UHGV virus genome: UHGV-0134996
Strand: one strand, 5' to 3'
Length of the DNA: 64,000 nucleotides
Source of the DNA: a virus
Positions within the stretch are counted from its first letter, which is position 1, and the number at the start of each line of letters is the position of its first letter. Below are positions 1,704 to 54,859 of this stretch, piece by piece. The translations under genes were made by a program, and so were the position numbers. The notes under the pieces were generated by a model. That model did not search any database. It saw only the letters and a program-made list of their open reading frames with translations, and was not told the origin of the DNA.

Positions 1704-1705
1704 AT

Positions 1706-1730
1706 TATGCCCGGCATCAACCGGGCATTC
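1706..1730. terminator. hairpin between convergent c1 and ant-like gene (bidirectional terminator candidate)
   Basis: GCCCGG-catcaa-CCGGGC stem-loop followed by T-rich run. Confidence 0.5.
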
Positions 1731-1735
1731 TTCCA

Positions 1736-2791
1736 TTATTCAGCCGCCACCGGTTTTAACAAGCCAGCATCGAGCAGTTTACGCGTCAACCACTGCTGGC
1801 CTTTACCCGTTAATTGAGGCGTCAACCGTATCTGGTAGCCATCTTCATCATCCAGCACCACTTCTTTCACCGTGAAATACCCCGCATTGATGTACTGCTG
1901 GAACGGCACATTTTTACGTCCACCGGACGCTATCAGGATGCCGTTCTCCCGTAACCAGGCAAACAGCGCGTTTTGCTTAAGTCCAACAACCTTTGCAAAA
2001 TTTCCAATCAGGATCCCCTTAGCCACTGATACCCGGTCGGCAAAATCGACTTTGGGGGCTGCGGCCACCAGCTGCTGATTTAGCTGGTGGGCTTTCTGTT
2101 CCAGAAGTTGCTTTTGTTCAGCCAGTTCGGCAGCCAGGCGCAGAGCTTCGGGCAATGTTTGGGGGATCGCTGGAGAAGCAGCGCTAACCTGCTGCAACTC
2201 CTCCAGCTTGTCGATCAGCGAACGGCGGACCGCTTTTGACTCGCGCGCGGCGACTCGCAGGGCTTGTTTGAAAGTCATGGTGATAATGTCTATGTTTGCA
2301 CCATTTTTGCGACCTACACTTTTTGTGTAGGTCTCACCTTCAAGCTCATCTACAACCTTCTCAATAAACTTATTATTTCTTACTAATGGTTCCCCACATA
2401 ACTTACGCGCCTCATTAACCATCTTTAACAGCGTCTGGCTGTCGATTGTGTCTCCGGTGTTGGGGATAGCATCCATGACCGGTGCTGGTGTGGTTGCTGT
2501 CAAAGGCTTTGTAACGACAACATCTGGTTTGCTTGCTTTCATTCTGTGTGCCTCCTTGCGTGTTTCGGCTGCGACGGTTGCGTAATTCAGATGCCCCTGT
2601 TCGAGCAGGTATTCGCGGATATCAGACAACAGAATGCGGTGAACAGCGTTCTTGTCCTTTCTCCGGTAAAGTTGTTTGGTGATCATGAAGTAGTTGGCAA
2701 TAACACCCGGTATATCCCTGGTACTGATACAGGATGTGTGCTGTTCAATTGCCTCAATCATTTCTTCACGGGTGACTAATGACGTTCTCAT
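1736..2791 (-). CDS. antirepressor, Ant-like with KilA-C type C-terminal domain (second copy in window)
   Basis: 351 aa; C-terminal half near-identical to the ant at 53270-54310 and related to KilA C-terminus; ATG start overlaps upstream icd-like stop (ATGA). Confidence 0.75.
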   Translation of the reverse strand: MRTSLVTREEMIEAIEQHTSCISTRDIPGVIANYFMITKQLYRRKDKNAVHRILLSDIREYLLEQGHLNYATVAAETRKEAHRMKASKPDVVVTKPLTATTPAPVMDAIPNTGDTIDSQTLLKMVNEARKLCGEPLVRNNKFIEKVVDELEGETYTKSVGRKNGANIDIITMTFKQALRVAARESKAVRRSLIDKLEELQQVSAASPAIPQTLPEALRLAAELAEQKQLLEQKAHQLNQQLVAAAPKVDFADRVSVAKGILIGNFAKVVGLKQNALFAWLRENGILIASGGRKNVPFQQYINAGYFTVKEVVLDDEDGYQIRLTPQLTGKGQQWLTRKLLDAGLLKPVAAE

Positions 2792-3009
2792 CGTCCCTCC
2801 TGAGCAGAAGTGTTAACAGGGAGGCACCAGTAACTGAGAGAATTGCGCGAGTTAGTTGAAAAACGGGCAGTAAAAATGCAGGGGCCATCAGGCAATTGAG
2901 AGCGTGCCTCATCTTCTGTCGGTGCAATAACGAAGTGATAGTGACGTTTTTGGCAGGAGTAAAAGCGCCAGATAAATTCAGGATGAGTTGGGGTAGGGAT
3001 AGTAGCCAT
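2788..3009 (-). CDS. Icd-like small protein, translationally coupled to ant-like gene
   Basis: 73 aa from internal ATG with AAGGAGG RBS; paralog of the 73-aa icd at 54307-54528 (PEFIWRFYSC...DGPCIFTARFS). Confidence 0.6.
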   Translation of the reverse strand: MATIPTPTHPEFIWRFYSCQKRHYHFVIAPTEDEARSQLPDGPCIFTARFSTNSRNSLSYWCLPVNTSAQEGR

Positions 3010-3329
3010 ATTGGCAGCCTCCTTAGACGTTGGTATGTAACCACCGCAGAAGAGACCAATCTTGCTGGCGGTGGACTGTACGGAGTTGGCCTTACTGGCG
3101 TCCAAGGTAACCAGCCTACCCGAAGGTAGCCCCATACAGCCCACCATTGTAGAGGTGTGCGTGTACGCCGATACAAAAAAAAGACGCGAGCGGCGTCTGT
3201 ATCGCCTTAGACTTAAGCGGGAGGCCAATCCCGGCACCCGTTTTAATGAGGTGCCTGATAAGCATAAACCGAAAATGCCTCAAGGCGCAAGAGGTCAGGT
3301 TCAATGTAACATCGGCAGTCAAAAAACAC

Positions 3330-3346
3330 AATTTATTAGAGCAAAT
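3330..3346 (-). promoter_or_regulatory. C1 operator upstream of the icd/ant-like module
   Basis: AATTTATTAGAGCAAAT, 16/17 match to reverse complement of operator consensus. Confidence 0.7.
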
Positions 3347-3348
3347 AT

Positions 3349-4833
3349 TTATTCGTTAAGCCATGCAAGAGCTTCATCAACCTGCGCTTCGTCTTCGACG
3401 CTAAGCACTTCATCCTGGGGAACATAATCCGCCAGCATAGCGAAACAATATGTATCCCAATGGTCTGGTGAGTGCAGGTTGAGTTTTTTCTTCATATCCT
3501 CCTTACTCATCACCTTCCATTGACCTGCGGAGTTAATCCCTACAGGGATTTTCGACGCTTCCTCAATAGTTTCATTACCCTTATCCAGTCTCATACGACC
3601 AGATTTTACTGCCTCTGCGGCTTGAACGTTGGCATAAGCACGTTTATCAAAGTACAGGCTCTTATCTTCACGGCTATGCATCTTTTTACCCCAGCGTATA
3701 CGCTGTACGGTAATACCATAATGCTCGTACATCAGATCCGCCGTTGCTTTACCCAGGCCATCGCCGTCTATCGCTATGGTGATATTTGGGAATCGCTCAG
3801 GATTGCATTCTGCGAAAATTTTGGCGGCAAGCTGCGTTTCTGTAACGTCTGTGTATTCCAGCATTCGATAGTTGATTACACGGCGTTTATTTCGCTGGCC
3901 GGACACCATCATGATATTGATAACGGACTTATCCCGTCCCGTACCACCAGCAACGTCCACACATGCAAGCCAGCCCCATCCTTTTGCAATCTTGACTTTC
4001 CGCCGCGTTGCACGTTCAACCTCATCACGCCCAAGAAGGAAGCCATCCTGTGATTTAGGGAATAGGCCGCGTACCTTAATCATGTACATAGGGTTATCAC
4101 GCCCGCCGTACTCCGCCAGCTTCATTTTGATAAATGCTGGCGTTACCAGCGGTGATTCCTCACTGTTAAGCGTGATCGCCGTATAAACGCCATCTGGGTT
4201 ACCAGGACGCTTGGCCAGTTTATGGTGAGTATCGTAGAAATAGCCGCTTGGGCGTGTAGGCTGTGACAGTAATAAGATGCGGTTATCCTGTCCGGTAAGA
4301 GCACCGGTGATGATACCGAAAGCTCTATCACTGACACCGGAGGCTTCATCGATAATATACAGAAGATGATCTGCGTGTTCACCGGCGAGAGCTTCTTCAC
4401 TTCCCAGACGAAAGCCCTTCGGTACTACAGTCCATACACCTTTACCAGTAACCTCATAGAAAGCGGTTTCTGTCAGAACAAAATAATCAGCAAGCCATGG
4501 AAAACGGCTGGTGGCAGTAGCCCAGTTTATCTTGATGTACTTGAATATACCGGTCATTACCTGCTGAATTTTGTTCGCAACGATAATGGCGCGGGCACCG
4601 GGATACATGATTATGAACAACATGATCATGATAGAAGTCATGTCTGATTTCCCGGTACCGTGACCAGACGAAACAGATGTCTTGCTACCCTGTTCCTGCA
4701 CAGACTCAATAATCAGATCCTGCTGCCAGGTAGGTGTTTTGCCGAATAAAACATCAGCGGCCGCAATCCAGTCATAACGATATAGCGCCACCAGCTCGCG
4801 CCAACGTGGATCCGTTACGCAACTTCTGGCCAT
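3349..4833 (-). CDS. pacB: PacB, terminase large subunit
   Basis: 494 aa; ATP-binding motif region; start overlaps pacA stop (TAATG); position as in P1 pac operon. Confidence 0.85.
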
Positions 4834-6026
4834 TAATCATCATCCCCGTATAGCTTGCGGGTAACTTCTTCGTCTTCCTCCTCGTCTTCGTCCAGGTCTT
4901 GTTCCAGCCATGGGTCGTTTGATACACCTTCAGTATCAACATCTCCATAACCGCCTGTATCAACGATATCGGCGATTTCTTCCCTACGCTGCTCAATCCA
5001 CAATGCGGCATCGGCGCGGCGGTTGGCGGCCCGTTCTCGCGCAACTTTGTCCAGATCGTCAAGAGAAGGGCCACCGACGGCTGTTTGCCTTTCCTCATCA
5101 TCGGTATTGGTCTTAGGAGCACGCAGATCGGCTTTGATTTGCTCCAGCATCAGGGGCGGCACTTTCCCGCCATGCGCCTCGATGAATTCAGCTGCTTCCA
5201 GCACTGACCAGTTATTTTCACGCTTTCGTTCGTATGCCAGCTTAACAATGCCAGCTTGCCCCATAGATAAAGCGTGCTTTTCCGCCTCCCGGCTTTCTTT
5301 TCGATAGTTATTCCGGATGCTGTAAATGGTGTTGATCAGGCTGCTTATCTGCGCGGAACAGCTGTTTAGCATGCTCGCGATACGATATTCAGGCGGAGTC
5401 CCTTCACCATCGTCTTTTTGCTGATCGCGCATTTCCTGCACCAGACGAATACACGTATCCCTGGCGTTCTCCAGCATAAGGAGATGAGAAAGAGACTTTT
5501 CAAGAAGAGTGGTTTCCAGAACATCGGCCCCGGACCGACGCAACATAGCGCGCGCGGCCTTCCGCGCTTCAACGTTATCTATCAGGTAATCGTCAGCTTC
5601 GAATTCAAAGCGTTCACCATCATCATCCAGGGTGTCGCGTTCCAGGCGATCACGTAAGGTCCGGTGGGCGCGGGTGATCACGTCATGATCATCAGAACGA
5701 TCATTTATGCGCTTATTCTGGCGCTTCGCGTTCTCGACTGCGGCACTGACAACAGCATTAACTCTTTGTTTTTCAGCCATTTCAGCCACAATGTGATCAC
5801 CTGCATGTTGATCATTAGCGTGATCAATGATCATGCTTTTTAGTGGTTTTCTGACAGGCTTATTTGGCTTACGGCTGTCCGCTGTTCCGGTGTCTTCTTT
5901 GAATGCACGGAGATAACGACGTGCGGTGTTTGGGTTGAGATTAAACTCGGCGGCATATTGTGCGATGGTGTAACCACCATCTCGCGCCAGGCGAGCAAAA
6001 TTCTTCTTGTGATCGTCCCAGGTCAC
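4833..6026 (-). CDS. pacA: PacA, terminase small subunit (pac recognition)
   Basis: 397 aa, N-terminus [20 protein letters not shown], acidic C-terminus; contains the pac GATC clusters; GTG start with AAGGAAG RBS. Confidence 0.85.
5645..5835. other. pac: pac packaging site inside pacA
   Basis: Two clusters of TGATCA/GATC hexamers (about 5648-5703 and 5792-5833) about 90 bp apart, the P1 pac architecture. Confidence 0.75.
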
Positions 6027-6654: not shown

Positions 6655-7697
6655 TATCTAACGCTCGACGAGTGACTTGTGATAGCGCCGACTCCAAGCG
6701 CGTAATCAAAGAACAATCGTTGATGCATCGCCAGCCTACCGTGCGTCTTCTCCCAATTATCGCGGTCACGCTCAATATCACGCTGGCATGACTGGCACAG
6801 AGGAATAGCATAAATGTCATGCGCGCATAATCGACTATGACGAACGATATAAGGCGTAATGTGAGCGCCAGCTCCCGCAGCTCCACAGCCACAGCATGGA
6901 CGGGAAGCCACAAAGTCCATGTACTCGGGCAATTTTAGCGATTGAAGTTTTGGTATTTTGAAATGCGCCATACCTGGGTCGGAGTCAACATCCACAGGGC
7001 ATACTTTTGCACGCATCGGCGCGGCGCGTTCTTCCATCATCTGAACATATGCTGTAGCGCGATCGTCATACGGGCGAATATCCGCCTCTTTCAGAGGTCC
7101 GCTATCCTGCGGAGTAGCCTTCATCTTATTTATTGATATGCGGCAGACTTCTTCCGGCATCAGGTGCATCATGTTGCGCATGAAAGCCCACCAGCACAGC
7201 TCCTGAATACTTAAATCATGGCTATTTGAAAGGCCCATTTCCTGACGGGCGACATCCAGTATCCAGTTAACGCGATTATTGTGCAGCGTTTCTTTCAGCT
7301 CATTAAAACCACGCATCCGGTAATGGTTATCGTGATGCCAGCACAACAACACCGCGCTATTGTCTCGTTCAGCGTGGACAATATGGTTGTCACACCAACT
7401 ACGATCTGCGGCCTGGCATTGACCCTCTTTCCTACGCAACCACGCCACCAGCGCGTCAATTCCACCAATACGGCGAAACAGTTCATCGCTGTTAAAAAAC
7501 GGCTGCAACGCCTCATTTGTTGCCATGGTTTGCTCGGTAACAACGAGGCCGTCTTCCATGTGCTCGATTAACTCACGCGGCACCGGCTCCATAATAAATT
7601 TACGGCCAGCCTCCACCAGCTTTCTGACCTCCTGATCCACTTTGAACGTGGCGACGCCAAGCTCTTTTTGTACAAAGGGAGTAATTACGGCTTTCAC
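6654..7697 (-). CDS. hypothetical protein with C-terminal cysteine cluster (P1 pdcB position)
   Basis: 347-aa ORF; CCGCG...C..C-x2-C cluster suggests metal binding; sits between doc and lpa. Confidence 0.55.
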
Positions 7698-7724
7698 ATC
7701 ACACCTTTCATCACTGATTGGGCT

Positions 7725-7925
7725 TTATCTGCTGCCCGGCATTCTCTGTTTAAGCACAACCATTTCCTGACGGCATAACACAGCAATAGCGGTCCTGGCA
7801 CCAATTTGCTTACCAACCAGGTATTGCTTTACCTCGCGGCGACTCACGCCATCAAGAAGCATCTTTAACGCTTCACGGGACAATTTGTTGTATTTACGTG
7901 CCATTAATCTACTCCGCGGAACCAT
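7725..7925 (-). CDS. small basic hypothetical protein (P1 pdcA position)
   Basis: 66-aa ORF downstream of doc, overlaps doc 3' end by 17 nt. Confidence 0.35.
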
Positions 7926-8289
7926 ACAATCTACGTAACGTGTCGGCGACAGAAGATACAGATATCTCTCCTGTCGCAGCCCCTACGGTAAGGTCTGCCA
8001 GTTCAGGTGAATCAAATACCTGCACCCCGTTACGGCGTAGAAATAACAGCGCACTGTTTAGCGCGGTACGCTTATTGGCATCATTGAATATATGCCCTCT
8101 CGCTGTAGCCACCAGGTAGGTGGCGGAGACTTCGAAAAGGTCGGTGATCTCTTCGTAGGCAACTCTGGCCTGAACTCTCCCGATAATGGCCTCTGCCCTA
8201 CCCGGATCTGACATTCCCGGCAGGCCGCCGTAGCGGTTTATATTCGCATCATGAAGCGCAATAAGTTCTTCCGGTGATATATGCCTCAT
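7909..8289 (-). CDS. doc: Doc toxin (Fic-fold kinase) of phd-doc addiction module
   Basis: 126 aa; start overlaps phd stop (TAATG); sequence and size as P1 Doc. Confidence 0.92.
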
Positions 8290-8510
8290 TATCGGTTAAC
8301 CAGTTCCTTGTTGGTGGAGTCCAGGGTGTCAAACAGGGATGCAAATTCAGCATCCAGCGCCGCTTTTTTGTAGGCTTCGAAAGTAGCCTTGCTGACAATT
8401 ACTGCTGGCTCACGGCCTCTGCGGGTGATTTCAACCTCTTCCCCGGCTTCAACATTGTTGAGCACTTCAGAAAGGTTGCCGCGCGCGGTACGGAAGTTAA
8501 TGGATTGCAT
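8289..8510 (-). CDS. phd: Phd antitoxin
   Basis: 73 aa [39 protein letters not shown]... as P1 Phd. Confidence 0.92.
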
Positions 8511-8582
8511 AAACACCTCATGTACTCGTTATGTGTACACAATTATAAACCTCACAGGCATAAAGCACCAGCACTTTGCAGC

Positions 8583-8972
8583 TTAAATAACCGGACAATC
8601 ATCAAATTCCCCACTTCGGGCATCATTGATGACATGAGTGATCACACCAAAAACAGCATTACTGCCCGTGTATCCATCGTCATCTACTGGTAACGCCTCT
8701 TTCTTCCCGGTGCTTAAGTCCTCCAGGTGCTGGCGCGGATACTTCCTGTATCTCTTTATGCGATATTCACCCTCCATAGCGCACACAAGCAGAGAACCAT
8801 CAACCGGAGTAAGCGAGGAATCAACCACCAGCAAAGCACCCTGCAATATTCCCTCACGGTGATGGCTATCAGCTGCCCGCATGAAGTAGGTCGCTGAAGG
8901 ATGTCTAATTATCTGCTGATCAAGAGAAATTCGGCTTTCAACATAATCCGCCGCAGGAGAAGGGAAGCCCAT
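8583..8972 (-). CDS. humD: HumD, UmuD-prime-like S24 peptidase-fold protein
   Basis: 129 aa with UmuD/LexA C-terminal domain similarity; SOS box just upstream. Confidence 0.8.
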   Translation of the reverse strand: MGFPSPAADYVESRISLDQQIIRHPSATYFMRAADSHHREGILQGALLVVDSSLTPVDGSLLVCAMEGEYRIKRYRKYPRQHLEDLSTGKKEALPVDDDGYTGSNAVFGVITHVINDARSGEFDDCPVI

Positions 8973-8990
8973 AGCGTTTTACCTCAATGA

Positions 8991-9010
8991 TACTGTTTAT
9001 TCATACAGTA
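8991..9010. promoter_or_regulatory. LexA box (SOS operator) upstream of humD
   Basis: TACTGTTTATTCATACAGTA contains CTGT-N8-ACAG palindrome 20 bp upstream of humD start. Confidence 0.8.
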
Positions 9011-9095
9011 TACATTGAAAAGGCATAGTTTGTGAAAGCGGGGTTTGTAGGCGCGCCACGCTGGGGGCTAATCACATTTCTCCCCCATCTTGCCG

Positions 9096-9347
9096 TTATT
9101 TTTTTGGTGCATCCTCGTTCTGATACACCGGATCGCTCCCTTTTGGCAACTGGAGGCTTAACTGCCGGTAGTGCCGTAGCCGTTCCATGAAATAGGCGCG
9201 CAGGTTTTCCGGTTGCTCACGGGCCACCTGCTCTGCAATCACAGGTATATTCAGCCGTTCTTTGTAAGCAACGCCGCTGGCGGCAAGGTCTACGTTCACC
9301 TTGTCTCGCTCTTCCTGGCTTTTAGCTGCTATATTTCGATCTGACAC
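9096..9347 (-). CDS. hot: Hot, homolog of DNA polymerase III theta subunit (HolE)
   Basis: 83 aa; [33 protein letters not shown] matches HolE family; GTG start with GGAGG RBS. Confidence 0.8.
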
Positions 9348-9379
9348 AAGAAACCTCCAGGAGTTAGTGGATCAGGCAC

Positions 9380-9730
9380 ATGCACAATAACGTTCTCAAT
9401 GTTAGCCGTTCAATTCAGACAATCAGAGACTGCACCAGTGTGGTGGCATCAATCCCGTTGCGGAACAGCATAGACGAACTGCAAATTCGTGTATTGAATC
9501 CGAATCAGGCTAATAAGCAATTGCGCTTTATTTTGACGCTGAAAAGTGAAACAGAGGGGATAAAGCACAGAGTAAAAGTGTTTTCTGAGGCCATTCTGCT
9601 TAATGGGAAGCTCCGGCATCTGGTAAGGCCAGAACGTCAATATCCTGACGTCCTGGCGCGTGAAAAAGACCTTCTTTCTGAAGTTCAGGATAGGGTGATC
9701 GATTTCGTCAAATGCTATCCCCTGCATTGA
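9380..9730 (+). CDS. hypothetical protein (only plus-strand ORF in this block)
   Basis: 116-aa ORF, opposite to neighbours; no strong RBS seen. Confidence 0.3.
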   Translation: MHNNVLNVSRSIQTIRDCTSVVASIPLRNSIDELQIRVLNPNQANKQLRFILTLKSETEGIKHRVKVFSEAILLNGKLRHLVRPERQYPDVLAREKDLLSEVQDRVIDFVKCYPLH

Positions 9731-9996
9731 GGGCAGGTGTTCCCTTCCGCAAAGTAGGGAAAATTGCTATCAAGTTCATCACACCATCTGCGATGGTCGT
9801 AGCACCAAAACGCCTCCCACGGTGCACGGAAATACTTCATCCACCAGGACACTCGATCAGGTATATCTGCTGGTGGCAGTTCTTCTGGCAATAATTTGCC
9901 TGATAATTCCCTTTCCGCCCGCGACAGCATTTTTTTGAGGCTCGCGTTCTCTTTTTCAAGCTCATCTACGCGCACCTGTAATTCAGCTTTCGTTGG
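9715..9996 (-). CDS. hypothetical coiled-coil protein
   Basis: ORF from internal ATG (MPTKAELQVRVDELEKENASLKK...), 14-nt overlap with upstream gene. Confidence 0.45.
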   Translation of the reverse strand, partial: PTKAELQVRVDELEKENASLKKMLSRAERELSGKLLPEELPPADIPDRVSWWMKYFRAPWEAFWCYDHRRWCDELDSNFPYFAEGNTCPQCRG

Positions 9997-10663
9997 CATG
10001 GTCCACCTCATGCTTTTCAGCCACCAGCGGCAATAAAGCCCTGGCCATCTTATGAACCAATAGTGCATCAATAATGCCAAGCGTATGCCCCGGCTTAATG
10101 TTTAATGCCGCCTCAAGGCGACACCTTTCCAGGCCACTTTTCTCGGCTTGTTTATGATGATCTGGTGTAATAACGTCGCCCAAAACACGGCTAATTCTTT
10201 CTCGTAATTGCTGGGTGCCAGCACACTTGATCGCTGTATCGTGGAGACGGTTAACCAGTTCGCGATAAACATGCGGCTTAATTCGGATACGTTCACCGGT
10301 GACGCCCTTTCCTGGTGCTGGCACCGAACTATCCGGAATATCCGGATAGTTGCCAGCCTCGTAAGCTACCCGCAGCCAGTGCATGAATGTTTCAGTGGAC
10401 ACACAACCACAGTCCACATCGATTTTCCCGCGTTGCTGTTCCAGCCAATGCTCAAAATTCAATCTACACGTATTACTTTCATGTTGCTCTTTTTGTCTCA
10501 AGGCCAGCACCTGTTGGGCCAGTTCCAGAACGATACCGGGTGACGCTAACCTCTCAAATTCCAATAAATAGTTTGCGTCAGGATGACAAGTAGCCTCGCC
10601 TGCAAAAAATACCAATTGCTGTAAGTATGCTGTCGTTAGAGTAGTCATTTCTTTTTGCGCCAT
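9983..10663 (-). CDS. hypothetical protein
   Basis: 226-aa ORF in tightly packed minus-strand operon. Confidence 0.5.
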   Translation of the reverse strand: MAQKEMTTLTTAYLQQLVFFAGEATCHPDANYLLEFERLASPGIVLELAQQVLALRQKEQHESNTCRLNFEHWLEQQRGKIDVDCGCVSTETFMHWLRVAYEAGNYPDIPDSSVPAPGKGVTGERIRIKPHVYRELVNRLHDTAIKCAGTQQLRERISRVLGDVITPDHHKQAEKSGLERCRLEAALNIKPGHTLGIIDALLVHKMARALLPLVAEKHEVDHANES

Positions 10664-50320: not shown

Positions 50321-50476
50321 TTACCTTTCAGATTCGTAGGCTGTGAAGACAGTGACCTCCGTCTGGCTGGTTCGGATTCGTACCTCGCAGAGGTCTTTCC
50401 TCGTTACCAGTGCCGTCACAATGACGGTTAAACAGATGACGATCAGAGCGATTAATATCGCTTTTTGCTGCTTCAT
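50321..50476 (-). CDS. hok: Hok/Gef-family type I toxin
   Basis: 51 aa MKQQKAILIALIVICLTVIVTALVTRKDLCEVRIRTSQTEVTVFTAYESER, near-identical in pattern to E. coli Gef/HokC; frame missing from ORF track. Confidence 0.85.
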   Translation of the reverse strand: MKQQKAILIALIVICLTVIVTALVTRKDLCEVRIRTSQTEVTVFTAYESER

Positions 50477-50534
50477 AGCCTGCTTCTCCTTGACCTTTTG
50501 GTCGGTAAGAGGCTAATCTACGTATGCTAAGCAT
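50328..50534 (-). CDS. mok: Mok-like overlapping reading frame (modulator of killing)
   Basis: 68-aa ORF overlapping nearly all of hok in another frame and starting upstream, as in hok/mok/sok loci. Confidence 0.6.
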   Translation of the reverse strand: MLSIRRLASYRPKGQGEAGYEAAKSDINRSDRHLFNRHCDGTGNEERPLRGTNPNQPDGGHCLHSLRI

Positions 50535-50657
50535 AGATATGGCCTCAGATTAATGTTAAGCGTCTTGCAGGACGCGTAATGTTATCTGGGGCTTTCTTCT
50601 ATCTGCTTTTCGGGTAATGCCTGAAGCAGATAGCCTCAAGCACCCGCAACGATTGTA

Positions 50658-53269: not shown

Positions 53270-54310
53270 TTAAGACAAGGACGCCACTGGTTTTAACAAG
53301 CCAGCATCAAGTAGCTTGCGAGTCAACCACTGCTGGCCTTTACCCGTTAATTGGGGCGTCAGCCGTATCTGGTAGCCATTTTCATCATCCAGCACCACTT
53401 CTTTCACCGTGAAATACCCGGCGTTGATGTACTGTTGGCGCGGTACGTTTTTGCGCGCACCAAAAGCCATGAGAATGCCGTTCTGGCGCAACCATGAGAA
53501 AAGGGCGTTTTGCTTAAGTCCAACGACCTTTGCAAAGTTCCCGATCAGGATTCCATTAGCCACTGATACCCGGTCGGCAAAATCGACTTTAGGGGCTGCG
53601 GCCACCAGCTGTTGTTCCAGCTGCATTTTCTGTTCTGCCAACTCGGCAGCCAGGCGTAGAGCTTCTGGTAATGTTTGGGGGATCGATGGGGCAGGGGAGT
53701 TTGCCTGCTGCAATTCTTCCAGTTTGTCGATCAGCGAACGGCGGACCGCTTTTGACTCGCGCGCGGCGACTCGCAGGGCTTGTTTGAAAGTCATGGTTAT
53801 GACAAGCATTGATGTTTTGTTCATTTTTTCCACTACACTTTTTGTGTAGTGCTCACCATCAAGCTCATCGAGTATTTTTTCGATGAATTTGTTGTTCCGA
53901 ACCTCTGGTTCCCCACATAACTTACGCGCTTCATTGACCATCTTTAACAGTGTCAGGCTGTCGATTGTGTCTCCGGTGTTGGAGATAACATGCACTGCTG
54001 GTGATGGCGTAGCTGAAGCAACAGGTGCTGGTTTTTCAACATTCAAATTATTACCGGTCATTCTGCGCGCCTCCTTTCTCATTTCTGCTGCCACTGTTGC
54101 GTAACGTAGACGTCCTTGTTCAATCAAATAATCCCTGATCTCGGCTATCAGTAGCCTGTTGATCACAGCCTTATCTGTTCGGGTATAAAAACGTCTGGTT
54201 ATCATGAAATAGTTGGCAATTGCGCCGGGGATCTCCCGTGTCGGCATACAGGTTGTATGCAAAGCGATCGCTTCGGCTATTTCATTACGGGTGACGAGAG
54301 GTGTTTTCAT
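53270..54310 (-). CDS. ant1: Ant1/Ant2 antirepressor (ImmI)
   Basis: 346 aa; start overlaps icd stop (ATGA); adjacent to kilA-repL as in P1 ImmI. Confidence 0.85.
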   Translation of the reverse strand: MKTPLVTRNEIAEAIALHTTCMPTREIPGAIANYFMITRRFYTRTDKAVINRLLIAEIRDYLIEQGRLRYATVAAEMRKEARRMTGNNLNVEKPAPVASATPSPAVHVISNTGDTIDSLTLLKMVNEARKLCGEPEVRNNKFIEKILDELDGEHYTKSVVEKMNKTSMLVITMTFKQALRVAARESKAVRRSLIDKLEELQQANSPAPSIPQTLPEALRLAAELAEQKMQLEQQLVAAAPKVDFADRVSVANGILIGNFAKVVGLKQNALFSWLRQNGILMAFGARKNVPRQQYINAGYFTVKEVVLDDENGYQIRLTPQLTGKGQQWLTRKLLDAGLLKPVASLS

Positions 54311-54528
54311 AAACCCCCCTGAACGTTGGCAGAGAAGGGGAGGCTCCAGTAACTAAGTGAATTGCGCGAGTCAGTTGAAAAACGGGCAGTAAAAATGCAG
54401 GGGCCATCAGGCAATTGAGAGCGTGCTTCGTCTTCAGTTGCTGCGATAACGAAGTGATAGTGGTGTTTTTTACAGGAATAGAAACGCCAGATGAATTCTG
54501 GGCGTGCGCAAGGATTGGCATTAACCAT
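54307..54528 (-). CDS. icd: Icd, interference with cell division
   Basis: 73 aa MVNANPCARPEFIWRFYSCKK..., translationally coupled to ant. Confidence 0.8.
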   Translation of the reverse strand: MVNANPCARPEFIWRFYSCKKHHYHFVIAATEDEARSQLPDGPCIFTARFSTDSRNSLSYWSLPFSANVQGGL

Positions 54529-54842
54529 AGTTACGGCCTCACAATCAGGTTTAACAACCTGCTACCCGCTGCTAAACAGGTGGCAGGACGTGACGGGGTT
54601 AGCAGACTGGCGATTGTGAAACCAGCAGGCCGAAGCCTCCCCATCACGCCCCACCATAATTTGGGCGTAACGCGGTTTTACGGACACAAAAATACCGCAA
54701 TATCGGATATCTGCGGCTGTCCGCACAATCATTCAGGCTGCTAAACCCGGTCGCAGAATTTGCTACGACGGCGGAACTATAAGCCTGAACGATTAAAAGG
54801 TCAATATGATGCGAAAAGATAGCATTCGCGACTTAAAAATAC

Positions 54843-54859
54843 AAATCTATTAGAGCATT
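54843..54859 (-). promoter_or_regulatory. C1 operator of ImmI (Op51-like)
   Basis: AAATCTATTAGAGCATT, 14/17 to reverse complement of consensus, upstream of the c4/icd leader. Confidence 0.65.

Follow-up and report, generated by a model that had tools for sequence, protein, structure and literature searches.

The window analysed here, a stretch of 64,000 nucleotides (nt) from the virus genome UHGV-0134996, belongs to a P1-like phage-plasmid, and the element in question is a c4-icd-ant type module inserted between its genes pacB and c1. In the window, coi (532-741) and c1 (852-1703) lie on the plus strand and are directed towards pacB (3349-4833) and pacA (4833-6026), which are both on the minus strand. 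The stop codons of pacB and c1 are 24 bp apart in reference P1; here these 24 bp have become 1,645 bp (1704-3348), and every feature of the insert lies on the minus strand, in the same orientation as pacB. The insert is also absent from P7, and both P7 and phiW39 match the window at this junction only over the two gene ends.

Read from pacB towards c1, the insert begins with a C1 operator-like 17-mer, TTTGCTCTAATAAATTG (3329-3345), located 3 nt past the pacB stop, with two mismatches to the P1 C1 operator consensus ATTGCTCTAATAAATTT and placed relative to the promoters as Oc4/Op51 is in P1. The window contains 14 C1-operator-like sites, where chance alone would give 0.37. Two promoter-like sites, assigned by alignment to annotated P1 promoters, come next. 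The putative counterpart of P1 P2c4 (P51a) occupies 3303-3331 (-35 TTGTGT 3331-3326, 17-nt spacer, -10 TACATT 3308-3303), and its -35 overlaps the operator-like 17-mer at the sequence level; the putative counterpart of P1c4 (P51b) occupies 3255-3283 (-35 TTGAGG 3283-3278, 17-nt spacer, -10 TATCAG 3260-3255) and stops directly ahead of a match to the IsrK family. This IsrK-type leader RNA (3177-3254) scores 60.8 bits with Rfam RF01394 isrK (gathering score 50), and a terminator-like site was found in it by scan, a hairpin at 3198-3182 followed by T8 (to 3174). It is followed by a C4-type antisense RNA (3064-3151, core about 3145-3070), which gives a full-length match of 75.9 bits to Rfam RF01695 C4 (gathering score 45).

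The protein-coding part consists of two genes. An icd-like open reading frame (ORF) of 73 amino acids (aa; 2788-3009) matches NCBIfam NF033153 phage_ICD_like with 50 bits, and its stop overlaps the start of ant as ATGA (2791-2788). The ant gene (1736-2791) encodes an Ant1-like protein of 351 aa with a KilAC C-terminus (Pfam PF03374, E 2e-31) and matches PHROG 63, anti-repressor Ant, with E 2e-116. Nested within it, a predicted Ant2-like frame (1736-2542) would start at M84 (ATG 2542-2540) behind AAGGAGG (2557-2551), at the codon where ant2 is annotated to begin in P1. The hairpin ATGCCCGGTTGATGCCGGGCAT (1707-1728), a terminator-like site separating the stop codons of ant and c1, is likely a two-way terminator. 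The module is complete: all parts are intact, and the elements of P1 ImmI are all represented in the same order.

The window carries in addition a canonical ImmI module (53270-54859, minus strand) that adjoins kilA-repL and served as our comparator. It comprises an operator (54843-54859), the a1b1 leader (54730-54782), c4 (54576-54661), icd (54307-54528) and ant (53270-54310). Its C4 scores 69.6 bits in Rfam (54661-54576), lower than that of the pacB-c1 copy, and its c4-a1b1 scores 55.5 bits; its Icd ORF also passes NCBIfam phage_ICD_like, and its c4 is base for base that of P7 (a' CUGCUAA, b' CACAAUC). A sequence-only reading of the window had proposed that the two modules share one architecture, a 73-aa Icd ORF overlapping by ATGA an Ant with KilAC, each behind a C1 operator of its own and each with a strongly different leader. 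All of this is borne out, with the first operator shifted by one base (it had been put at 3330-3346) and the leaders 45% identical with 30 gapped columns. Two further details had to be corrected. The roughly 170 nt described as near-identical across each icd start are in fact 85.4% identical (146/171), pair with 54339-54509 and lie inside icd from codon 7, without spanning the start; the longest exact run is 54 nt. Likewise, the N-terminal ~100 aa of the two Ants, described as completely different, are clearly homologous, since the proteins align end to end with 74% identity and the Ant2 start M84 is retained. The two Icds are 83% identical over residues 10-72, while their first 9 codons are only 44% identical.

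We then turned to the RNA layer. The predicted fold of the C4 RNA in the pacB-c1 copy, which the sequence-only reading had suggested checking for a C4-like shape, has a minimum free energy of -41.6 kcal/mol with a z-score of -3.5 and agrees with the C4 model, in which a long closing stem surrounds two hairpins and leaves a loop and a single-stranded stretch exposed. Across 8 alleles, 99.5% of the cells in the C4 stems are paired and 15 of the 27 pairs have changed on both sides; slid alignments gave only 27-45% paired cells, and no shuffle attained the observed covariation score. This set was confined to eight gap-free 76-nt alleles, as a MAFFT alignment with P1/P7 c4 misplaced the 3' end. With the c4-a1b1 model (Rfam RF03163) the pacB-c1 leader reaches 20.5 bits, below the gathering score of 46.7. 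The whole unprocessed leader (2995-3254) folds in prediction to -101.2 kcal/mol (z -3.6) with a1:a' and b1:b' paired in cis, a shape other than that of free C4.

In P1, the annotated targets a1/a2 (UUGACAG) pair with a single-stranded stretch of c4, and b1/b2 (GUUAGUG) with a c4 hairpin loop. The same two-part arrangement can be read in the pacB-c1 cassette. Its candidate a', AGGCCAA (3092-3086), lies in the 3' single-stranded stretch of C4, and b', CCTTGGAC (3107-3100; RNA CCUUGGAC, then G), in a hairpin loop. Upstream, the a1 target TTGGCCT (RNA UUGGCCU; 3228-3222), in the loop of the second hairpin of the leader, would pair with a' over 7/7 bp, and the b1 target GTCTAAGG (RNA GUCUAAGG; 3212-3205), single-stranded after the a1 hairpin, with b' over 8 bp including one G-U. 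Downstream, the a2 target TTGGTCT (RNA UUGGUCU; 3053-3059) would form 7 bp with a', including one G-U, and the b2 target CGTCTAAGG (RNA CGUCUAAGG; 3029-3021, feature 3018-3029) 9 bp with b', again with one G-U, over the icd Shine-Dalgarno sequence AAGGAGG (3024-3018). Cross-pairing between this cassette and the resident P7-type ImmI reaches 5-7 bp at best, with 2-4 G-U. Pairing was counted as contiguous complementarity of unpaired loop bases only; RNAduplex energies on loops that included stem nucleotides were noisy, separated cognate from non-cognate pairs poorly and were not used. On paper, the RNA codes of the two modules are orthogonal, and the prophage would therefore hold two independently locked antirepressors.

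To see how this code varies in nature, we collected 135 related leaders with two exact-pattern scans of IMG/VR, and scored a2 and b2 by a family-wide best-site search, with the same search on non-cognate loops as the control. Among them, a' comes in 9 types and b' in 6, and 12 combinations of the two are seen. In all 135, a2 and b2 fit their own loops, with at least 6.5/7 and at least 7.5/8, against non-cognate means of 4.8 and 5.6, respectively. The pacB-c1 site alone shows at least 5 (a', b') combinations, and its alleles, written as a'/b', include AGGCCAA/CCTTGGAC, GTCTCAA/CCTTTGAC and GTTCCAA/CCTTTTGC, next to junctions with no cassette. Taken together, these patterns are strong evidence for a function of the predicted C4 RNA and its four targets, and for diversifying pressure on their specificity. 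The exact C4 code of the window was found in one Escherichia contig only in a scan with one genome per species, with no sign there of sharing with non-P1 elements. One leader, L105, has an expanded (CACCAAT)n repeat between a2 and b2.

We propose, with a probability of roughly 0.7, that the insert is a complete and functional second ImmI-type immunity cassette, which would work like the c4-icd-ant operon of P1/P7 with an orthogonal RNA code. The suggestion of the sequence-only reading, a second antirepressor module that has a c4-type antisense RNA of its own and is hence a candidate for heteroimmunity, is supported by the C4 score, the covarying stems, the distinct recognition sequences and the matching targets. 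In this model, transcription would start from two promoters behind the C1 operator, one of them under C1 control. The first product would be the IsrK-like leader with the decoy or target sites a1 and b1, ending at a leaky terminator. The tRNA-like C4 RNA would then be excised from the operon's own transcript, and its exposed a' and b' would pair with a2 and b2 on the messenger RNA of the same operon. With b2 covered, the icd ribosome-binding site would be blocked and icd left untranslated; through the translational coupling at ATGA, probably together with Rho polarity as in P1, neither Ant1 nor Ant2 would be made, and C1 would stay active. As in Gifsy-1, a possible role of the short IsrK-like RNA is to titrate C4 or to change how the leader folds. 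For P1 itself, the corresponding steps reportedly come from work by Citron, Schuster, Heinrich, Biere, Riedel and Hartmann in 1990-1995. The c4 part of the P1 mechanism is summarised in PMC12197685.

Such a prophage would supply two immunity RNAs. As a resident it could silence incoming phages of either code, and as an invader a phage with the cassette could overcome the immunity of lysogens in which one of the phage's codes is missing. The cassette thus probably alters which related phages a lysogen is immune to.

Several observations weigh against this model. A strict sigma-70 consensus scan missed both leader promoters, which are weak matches resting on positional homology to P1 only. The IsrK-like part by itself folds no better than shuffled sequence (z -1.2). 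Among the 135 leaders, a1 is mismatched to a' in two, the recombinants L037 and L117, and since such natural recombinants exist, a1 may be dispensable. In Gifsy-1 of Salmonella, moreover, the short IsrK RNA activates translation in trans (PMC4825925), so that the sign or wiring of the control could differ from P1. Finally, most same-site relatives (RCS47, JL22, 673R5 and most plasmids) carry in the centre of Ant an ORF6N segment unrelated to the P1 type, so that the target of the cassette antirepressor may not be C1 in general.

The last point leads to an alternative in which the same RNA-controlled cassette releases an antirepressor that acts on the repressors of other co-resident elements, such as prophages or satellites, instead of C1, and so serves conflict between elements and not P1's own switch. 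Besides the different central domain (ORF6N, Pfam PF10543) of most same-site cassettes, such as that of RCS47, this is favoured by the leader, whose identity to the leader of a P4-like satellite, located in an E. coli chromosome, is 89% and which has the a' code in common with it, and by the related AnrP of Gifsy-1, which acts on a prophage circuit (PMC4825925). The Ant of the window itself points the other way. Its centre (~2170-2540) is of the P1-Ant type, its centre and C-terminus are canonical, it is 74% identical overall to the resident Ant with ~94% of the C-terminal nonsynonymous sites of ant unchanged between the copies, the nested Ant2 start is kept, and the C1 operator ahead of the cassette ties it to the C1 circuit. 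The Ant of the window looks C1-directed on these sequence grounds, and we consider a target other than C1 unlikely in this case.

A centre of the P1-Ant type at 95% identity or more is found in 13 PLSDB plasmids only. We considered whether it could derive from recent gene conversion by the canonical ant of the window; with a synonymous divergence (dS) of ~0.72 between the two, and with only those 13 plasmids carrying the centre, this was rejected. At the sequence level, the cassette is a mosaic.

Over the whole genes, the ratio of nonsynonymous to synonymous divergence (dN/dS) between the two copies amounts to 0.19 in icd and 0.18 in ant, at a dS of ~0.86. Values of ~0.18 at this dS mark copies that diverged long ago under purifying selection; the insert is no decaying duplicate. 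These figures bear directly on the idea that the insert is an inactive relic of duplication or recombination, passively carried. P1 and P7 manage without it, and disrupted, rearranged or duplicated versions do occur: in L056 about 1.3 kb are inserted between icd and ant (7412-8728), in L023 the cassette is tandemly duplicated after pacB (7836-10201), and L037 is a recombinant. Against such a relic, in addition to dN/dS, stand the intactness of every part, the compensatory changes in stems and in loop-target pairs, and the presence of the cassette in hundreds of plasmids, and we give it hardly any credence.

The same conservation argues against a third possibility, namely that the insert serves the plasmid prophage as an addiction or stress module in which C4 is antitoxin-like, Icd, as a cell-division inhibitor, is the toxic component and Ant is secondary. 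Icd-like ORFs are indeed annotated as cell-division inhibitors, the ribosome-binding site of icd would be blocked by an antisense RNA, and the low-copy plasmid has another RNA-controlled killer system (sok). Yet ant is as conserved as icd, with the same dN/dS, the two genes are translationally coupled by the ATGA overlap, icd translation in P1 serves mainly the expression of ant, and a difference in stability between the RNA and the messenger RNA is without evidence. We therefore regard an addiction module as very improbable. The sok element itself is a hok/sok-type antitoxin RNA (50471-50645, minus strand; Rfam RF01794, 114.9 bits) just past repL, and it may represent an extra addiction module; P1 is known for phd/doc.

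The preferred reading, a second immunity cassette, gains context from its distribution. In PLSDB, 258 of the 783 matching records have the insert at the pacB-c1 junction, as do RCS47, JL22 and 673R5; about one third of P1-like plasmids bear the module. A count over 5,426 complete E. coli genomes gave 600 plasmid places for pacB and 254 for leader-like sequence. The IMG/VR loci retrieved with one leader pattern lie directly after pacB in 55/55 cases, and most are then followed by c1. The sequence-only reading took the copy beside c1 to be acquired. This can be said only relative to P1 and P7, both of which lack the module at this junction; with about a third of P1-like plasmids carrying it, the difference may reflect either gain or loss.

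Four known systems help to place the cassette. It resembles ImmI of P1/P7 (Oc4/Op51, P51a/b, a1 b1, c4, a2 b2, icd, ant1/ant2) in part order, in the C1 operator over the first promoter, in a C4-family RNA with two recognition sequences that each have an upstream and a downstream target, in b2 over the icd ribosome-binding site, and in a 73-aa icd that overlaps ant by ATGA with a nested Ant2 start. It differs in its position at pacB-c1, whereas the P1 locus reads sim-ImmI-kilA-repL; as it does not lie between sim and kilA-repL, it is an ImmI-type cassette and not the ImmI locus itself. Its leader, unalignable with that of P1 at 45% identity, is of the IsrK / P4-CI subtype and not of the Rfam c4-a1b1 subtype, its recognition sequences bear no relation to those of P1 (CUGUCAA, CACUAAC) and P7 (CUGCUAA, CACAAUC), and the first 9 Icd codons are different.

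The Gifsy-1 locus of Salmonella combines IsrK, the processed RNA STnc1160, a short ORF (orf45) and the antirepressor AnrP in one operon, and its authors remarked on its structural kinship with P4 seqA/CI (PMC4825925). Like the cassette, isrK - STnc1160/orf45 - anrP has an IsrK-family RNA with its own terminator, then a processed stable RNA, and a short ORF whose translation is coupled to that of the KilAC-type antirepressor downstream; furthermore, the fold predicted for the full leader of the cassette, with a1 and b1 paired in cis, resembles the inactive 'structure A' of that system (PMC4825925). Unlike the cassette, Gifsy-1 has no C1 operator, its upstream ORF of 45 aa reportedly overlaps the processed RNA, an ORF of Icd type is not described, and the output is AntQ-mediated growth arrest (PMC4825925). 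In the P4 immunity region (seqA - CI RNA - seqC), an RNA is the immunity factor and has targets on both sides (PMC4825925). With the immunity region of the P4-like satellite in the E. coli chromosome, the leader of the cassette shares 88-89% identity over ~260 nt, the RNA scaffold and a'. The satellite differs in b' (CCUUGAUU), in its downstream replication genes (TOPRIM/DUF927 primase) in place of icd-ant, and in lacking a C1 operator. In P4 itself, control results in premature termination of transcription.

Another close relative is the insertion of RCS47 / pTZ20_1P (FO818745; PMC6906374), which has the same site, flanks, operator, promoters and an IsrK-type leader, an icd 93% identical, and nearly identical Ant N- and C-termini. 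It differs in a C4 scaffold and code of its own (a' GUCUCAA, b' CCUUUGAC) and in an Ant of 371 aa with an ORF6N central domain. The RCS47 record annotates 'ant' here, and the Prokaryotic Genome Annotation Pipeline (PGAP) names icd-like and KilAC proteins. Venturini et al. 2019 described, in a single sentence, two short hypothetical orfs plus ant between pacB and c1 as RCS47-like (PMC6906374); publications on RCS47/pTZ20_1P name ant and the short ORFs only, not the RNA genes. Beyond that sentence, our literature search turned up no work analysing a second ImmI or a second C4 of P1-like elements, and no paper recognising the C4/IsrK RNAs, the orthogonal code or the allele series of the cassette. 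The cassette adds one more member to a known class of systems and is already present in databases and in print, but its RNA layer and allele series had gone unremarked.

Two annotations touch on this RNA layer. In L140 (NZ_CP100487.1 pLH85-a-A), whose leader is 100% identical to that of the window's cassette, PGAP places an incomplete 'ash family protein' pseudogene (2714-2815, corresponding to window ~3135-3034) right over the C4 RNA gene, and in the P4-like element (L141, 3637-4665) a 342-aa 'ash family protein' coding sequence covers the RNA region. A protein seems to have been called here where an RNA gene lies.

As to its surroundings, the cassette is co-oriented with pacA-pacB, and only 3 nt (3346-3348), with no terminator, separate the pacB stop from the operator; at its other end it converges on c1, with one hairpin in between (1704-1735). 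Late transcription of pac might enter the cassette, and read-through from the cassette could be antisense to c1. Elsewhere in the window lie three tRNA genes on the minus strand (31543-31615, 33246-33318 and 33324-33396; Rfam tRNA, 64.7-74.5 bits).

Related cassettes also occur at other places in P1-like genomes. In L076 (313-4468), the classical ImmI position (ant-kilA-repL) bears an IsrK-type leader with a' GTTCCAA and b' CCTTTTGC in place of the P1/P7-type, so that leaders appear exchangeable between sites. L037 and L117 are natural recombinants with a1 from one code and a'/a2 from another, and in L037 pacB-leader-icd-ant is fused directly to kilA-repL, which points to recombination between two cassettes. 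IsrK-C4-icd cassettes are found at a third site in the P1-like IMG/VR contigs L064, L074, L090 and L110; the flanks of this site match the window at 14.7-15.6 kb and 21.1-21.7 kb, and the promoter region is another one, without a C1 operator. L008, L022 and L042 have a further inverted icd-ant ~4 kb past c1.

A wider view can be sketched from these arrangements, and we offer it tentatively, as possible though on the doubtful side. In this view, interchangeable IsrK-C4-icd-ant cassettes with recombined two-part codes, as many as three per phage-plasmid (pacB-c1, the classical ImmI and the third site), would form a combinatorial heteroimmunity 'barcode' for superinfection and induction. Because the RNA scaffolds and half-codes also occur in P4-like satellites and other prophages, this barcode could mediate cross-talk between unrelated mobile elements; if so, the CI RNA of a satellite, for example, could silence the antirepressor of a phage-plasmid, or the reverse.

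The heteroimmunity of P1 and P7 is a textbook case of an antisense RNA that defines phage immunity, and to our knowledge it has always been described as based on a single ImmI locus. Our results suggest that immunity in the P1 family is multi-locus and combinatorial, with a second cassette in a large fraction of P1-like phage-plasmids and sometimes a third; these extra cassettes appear fully equipped, with orthogonal and polymorphic codes. The advance is incremental and not a new mechanism. It bears on genome annotation, in which the RNA genes are either missing or wrongly recorded as a pseudogene of an 'ash family protein'. P1-like phage-plasmids are important carriers of resistance genes, and the finding also bears on which of them coexist or displace each other and on the stability of P1-derived vectors and lysogens.

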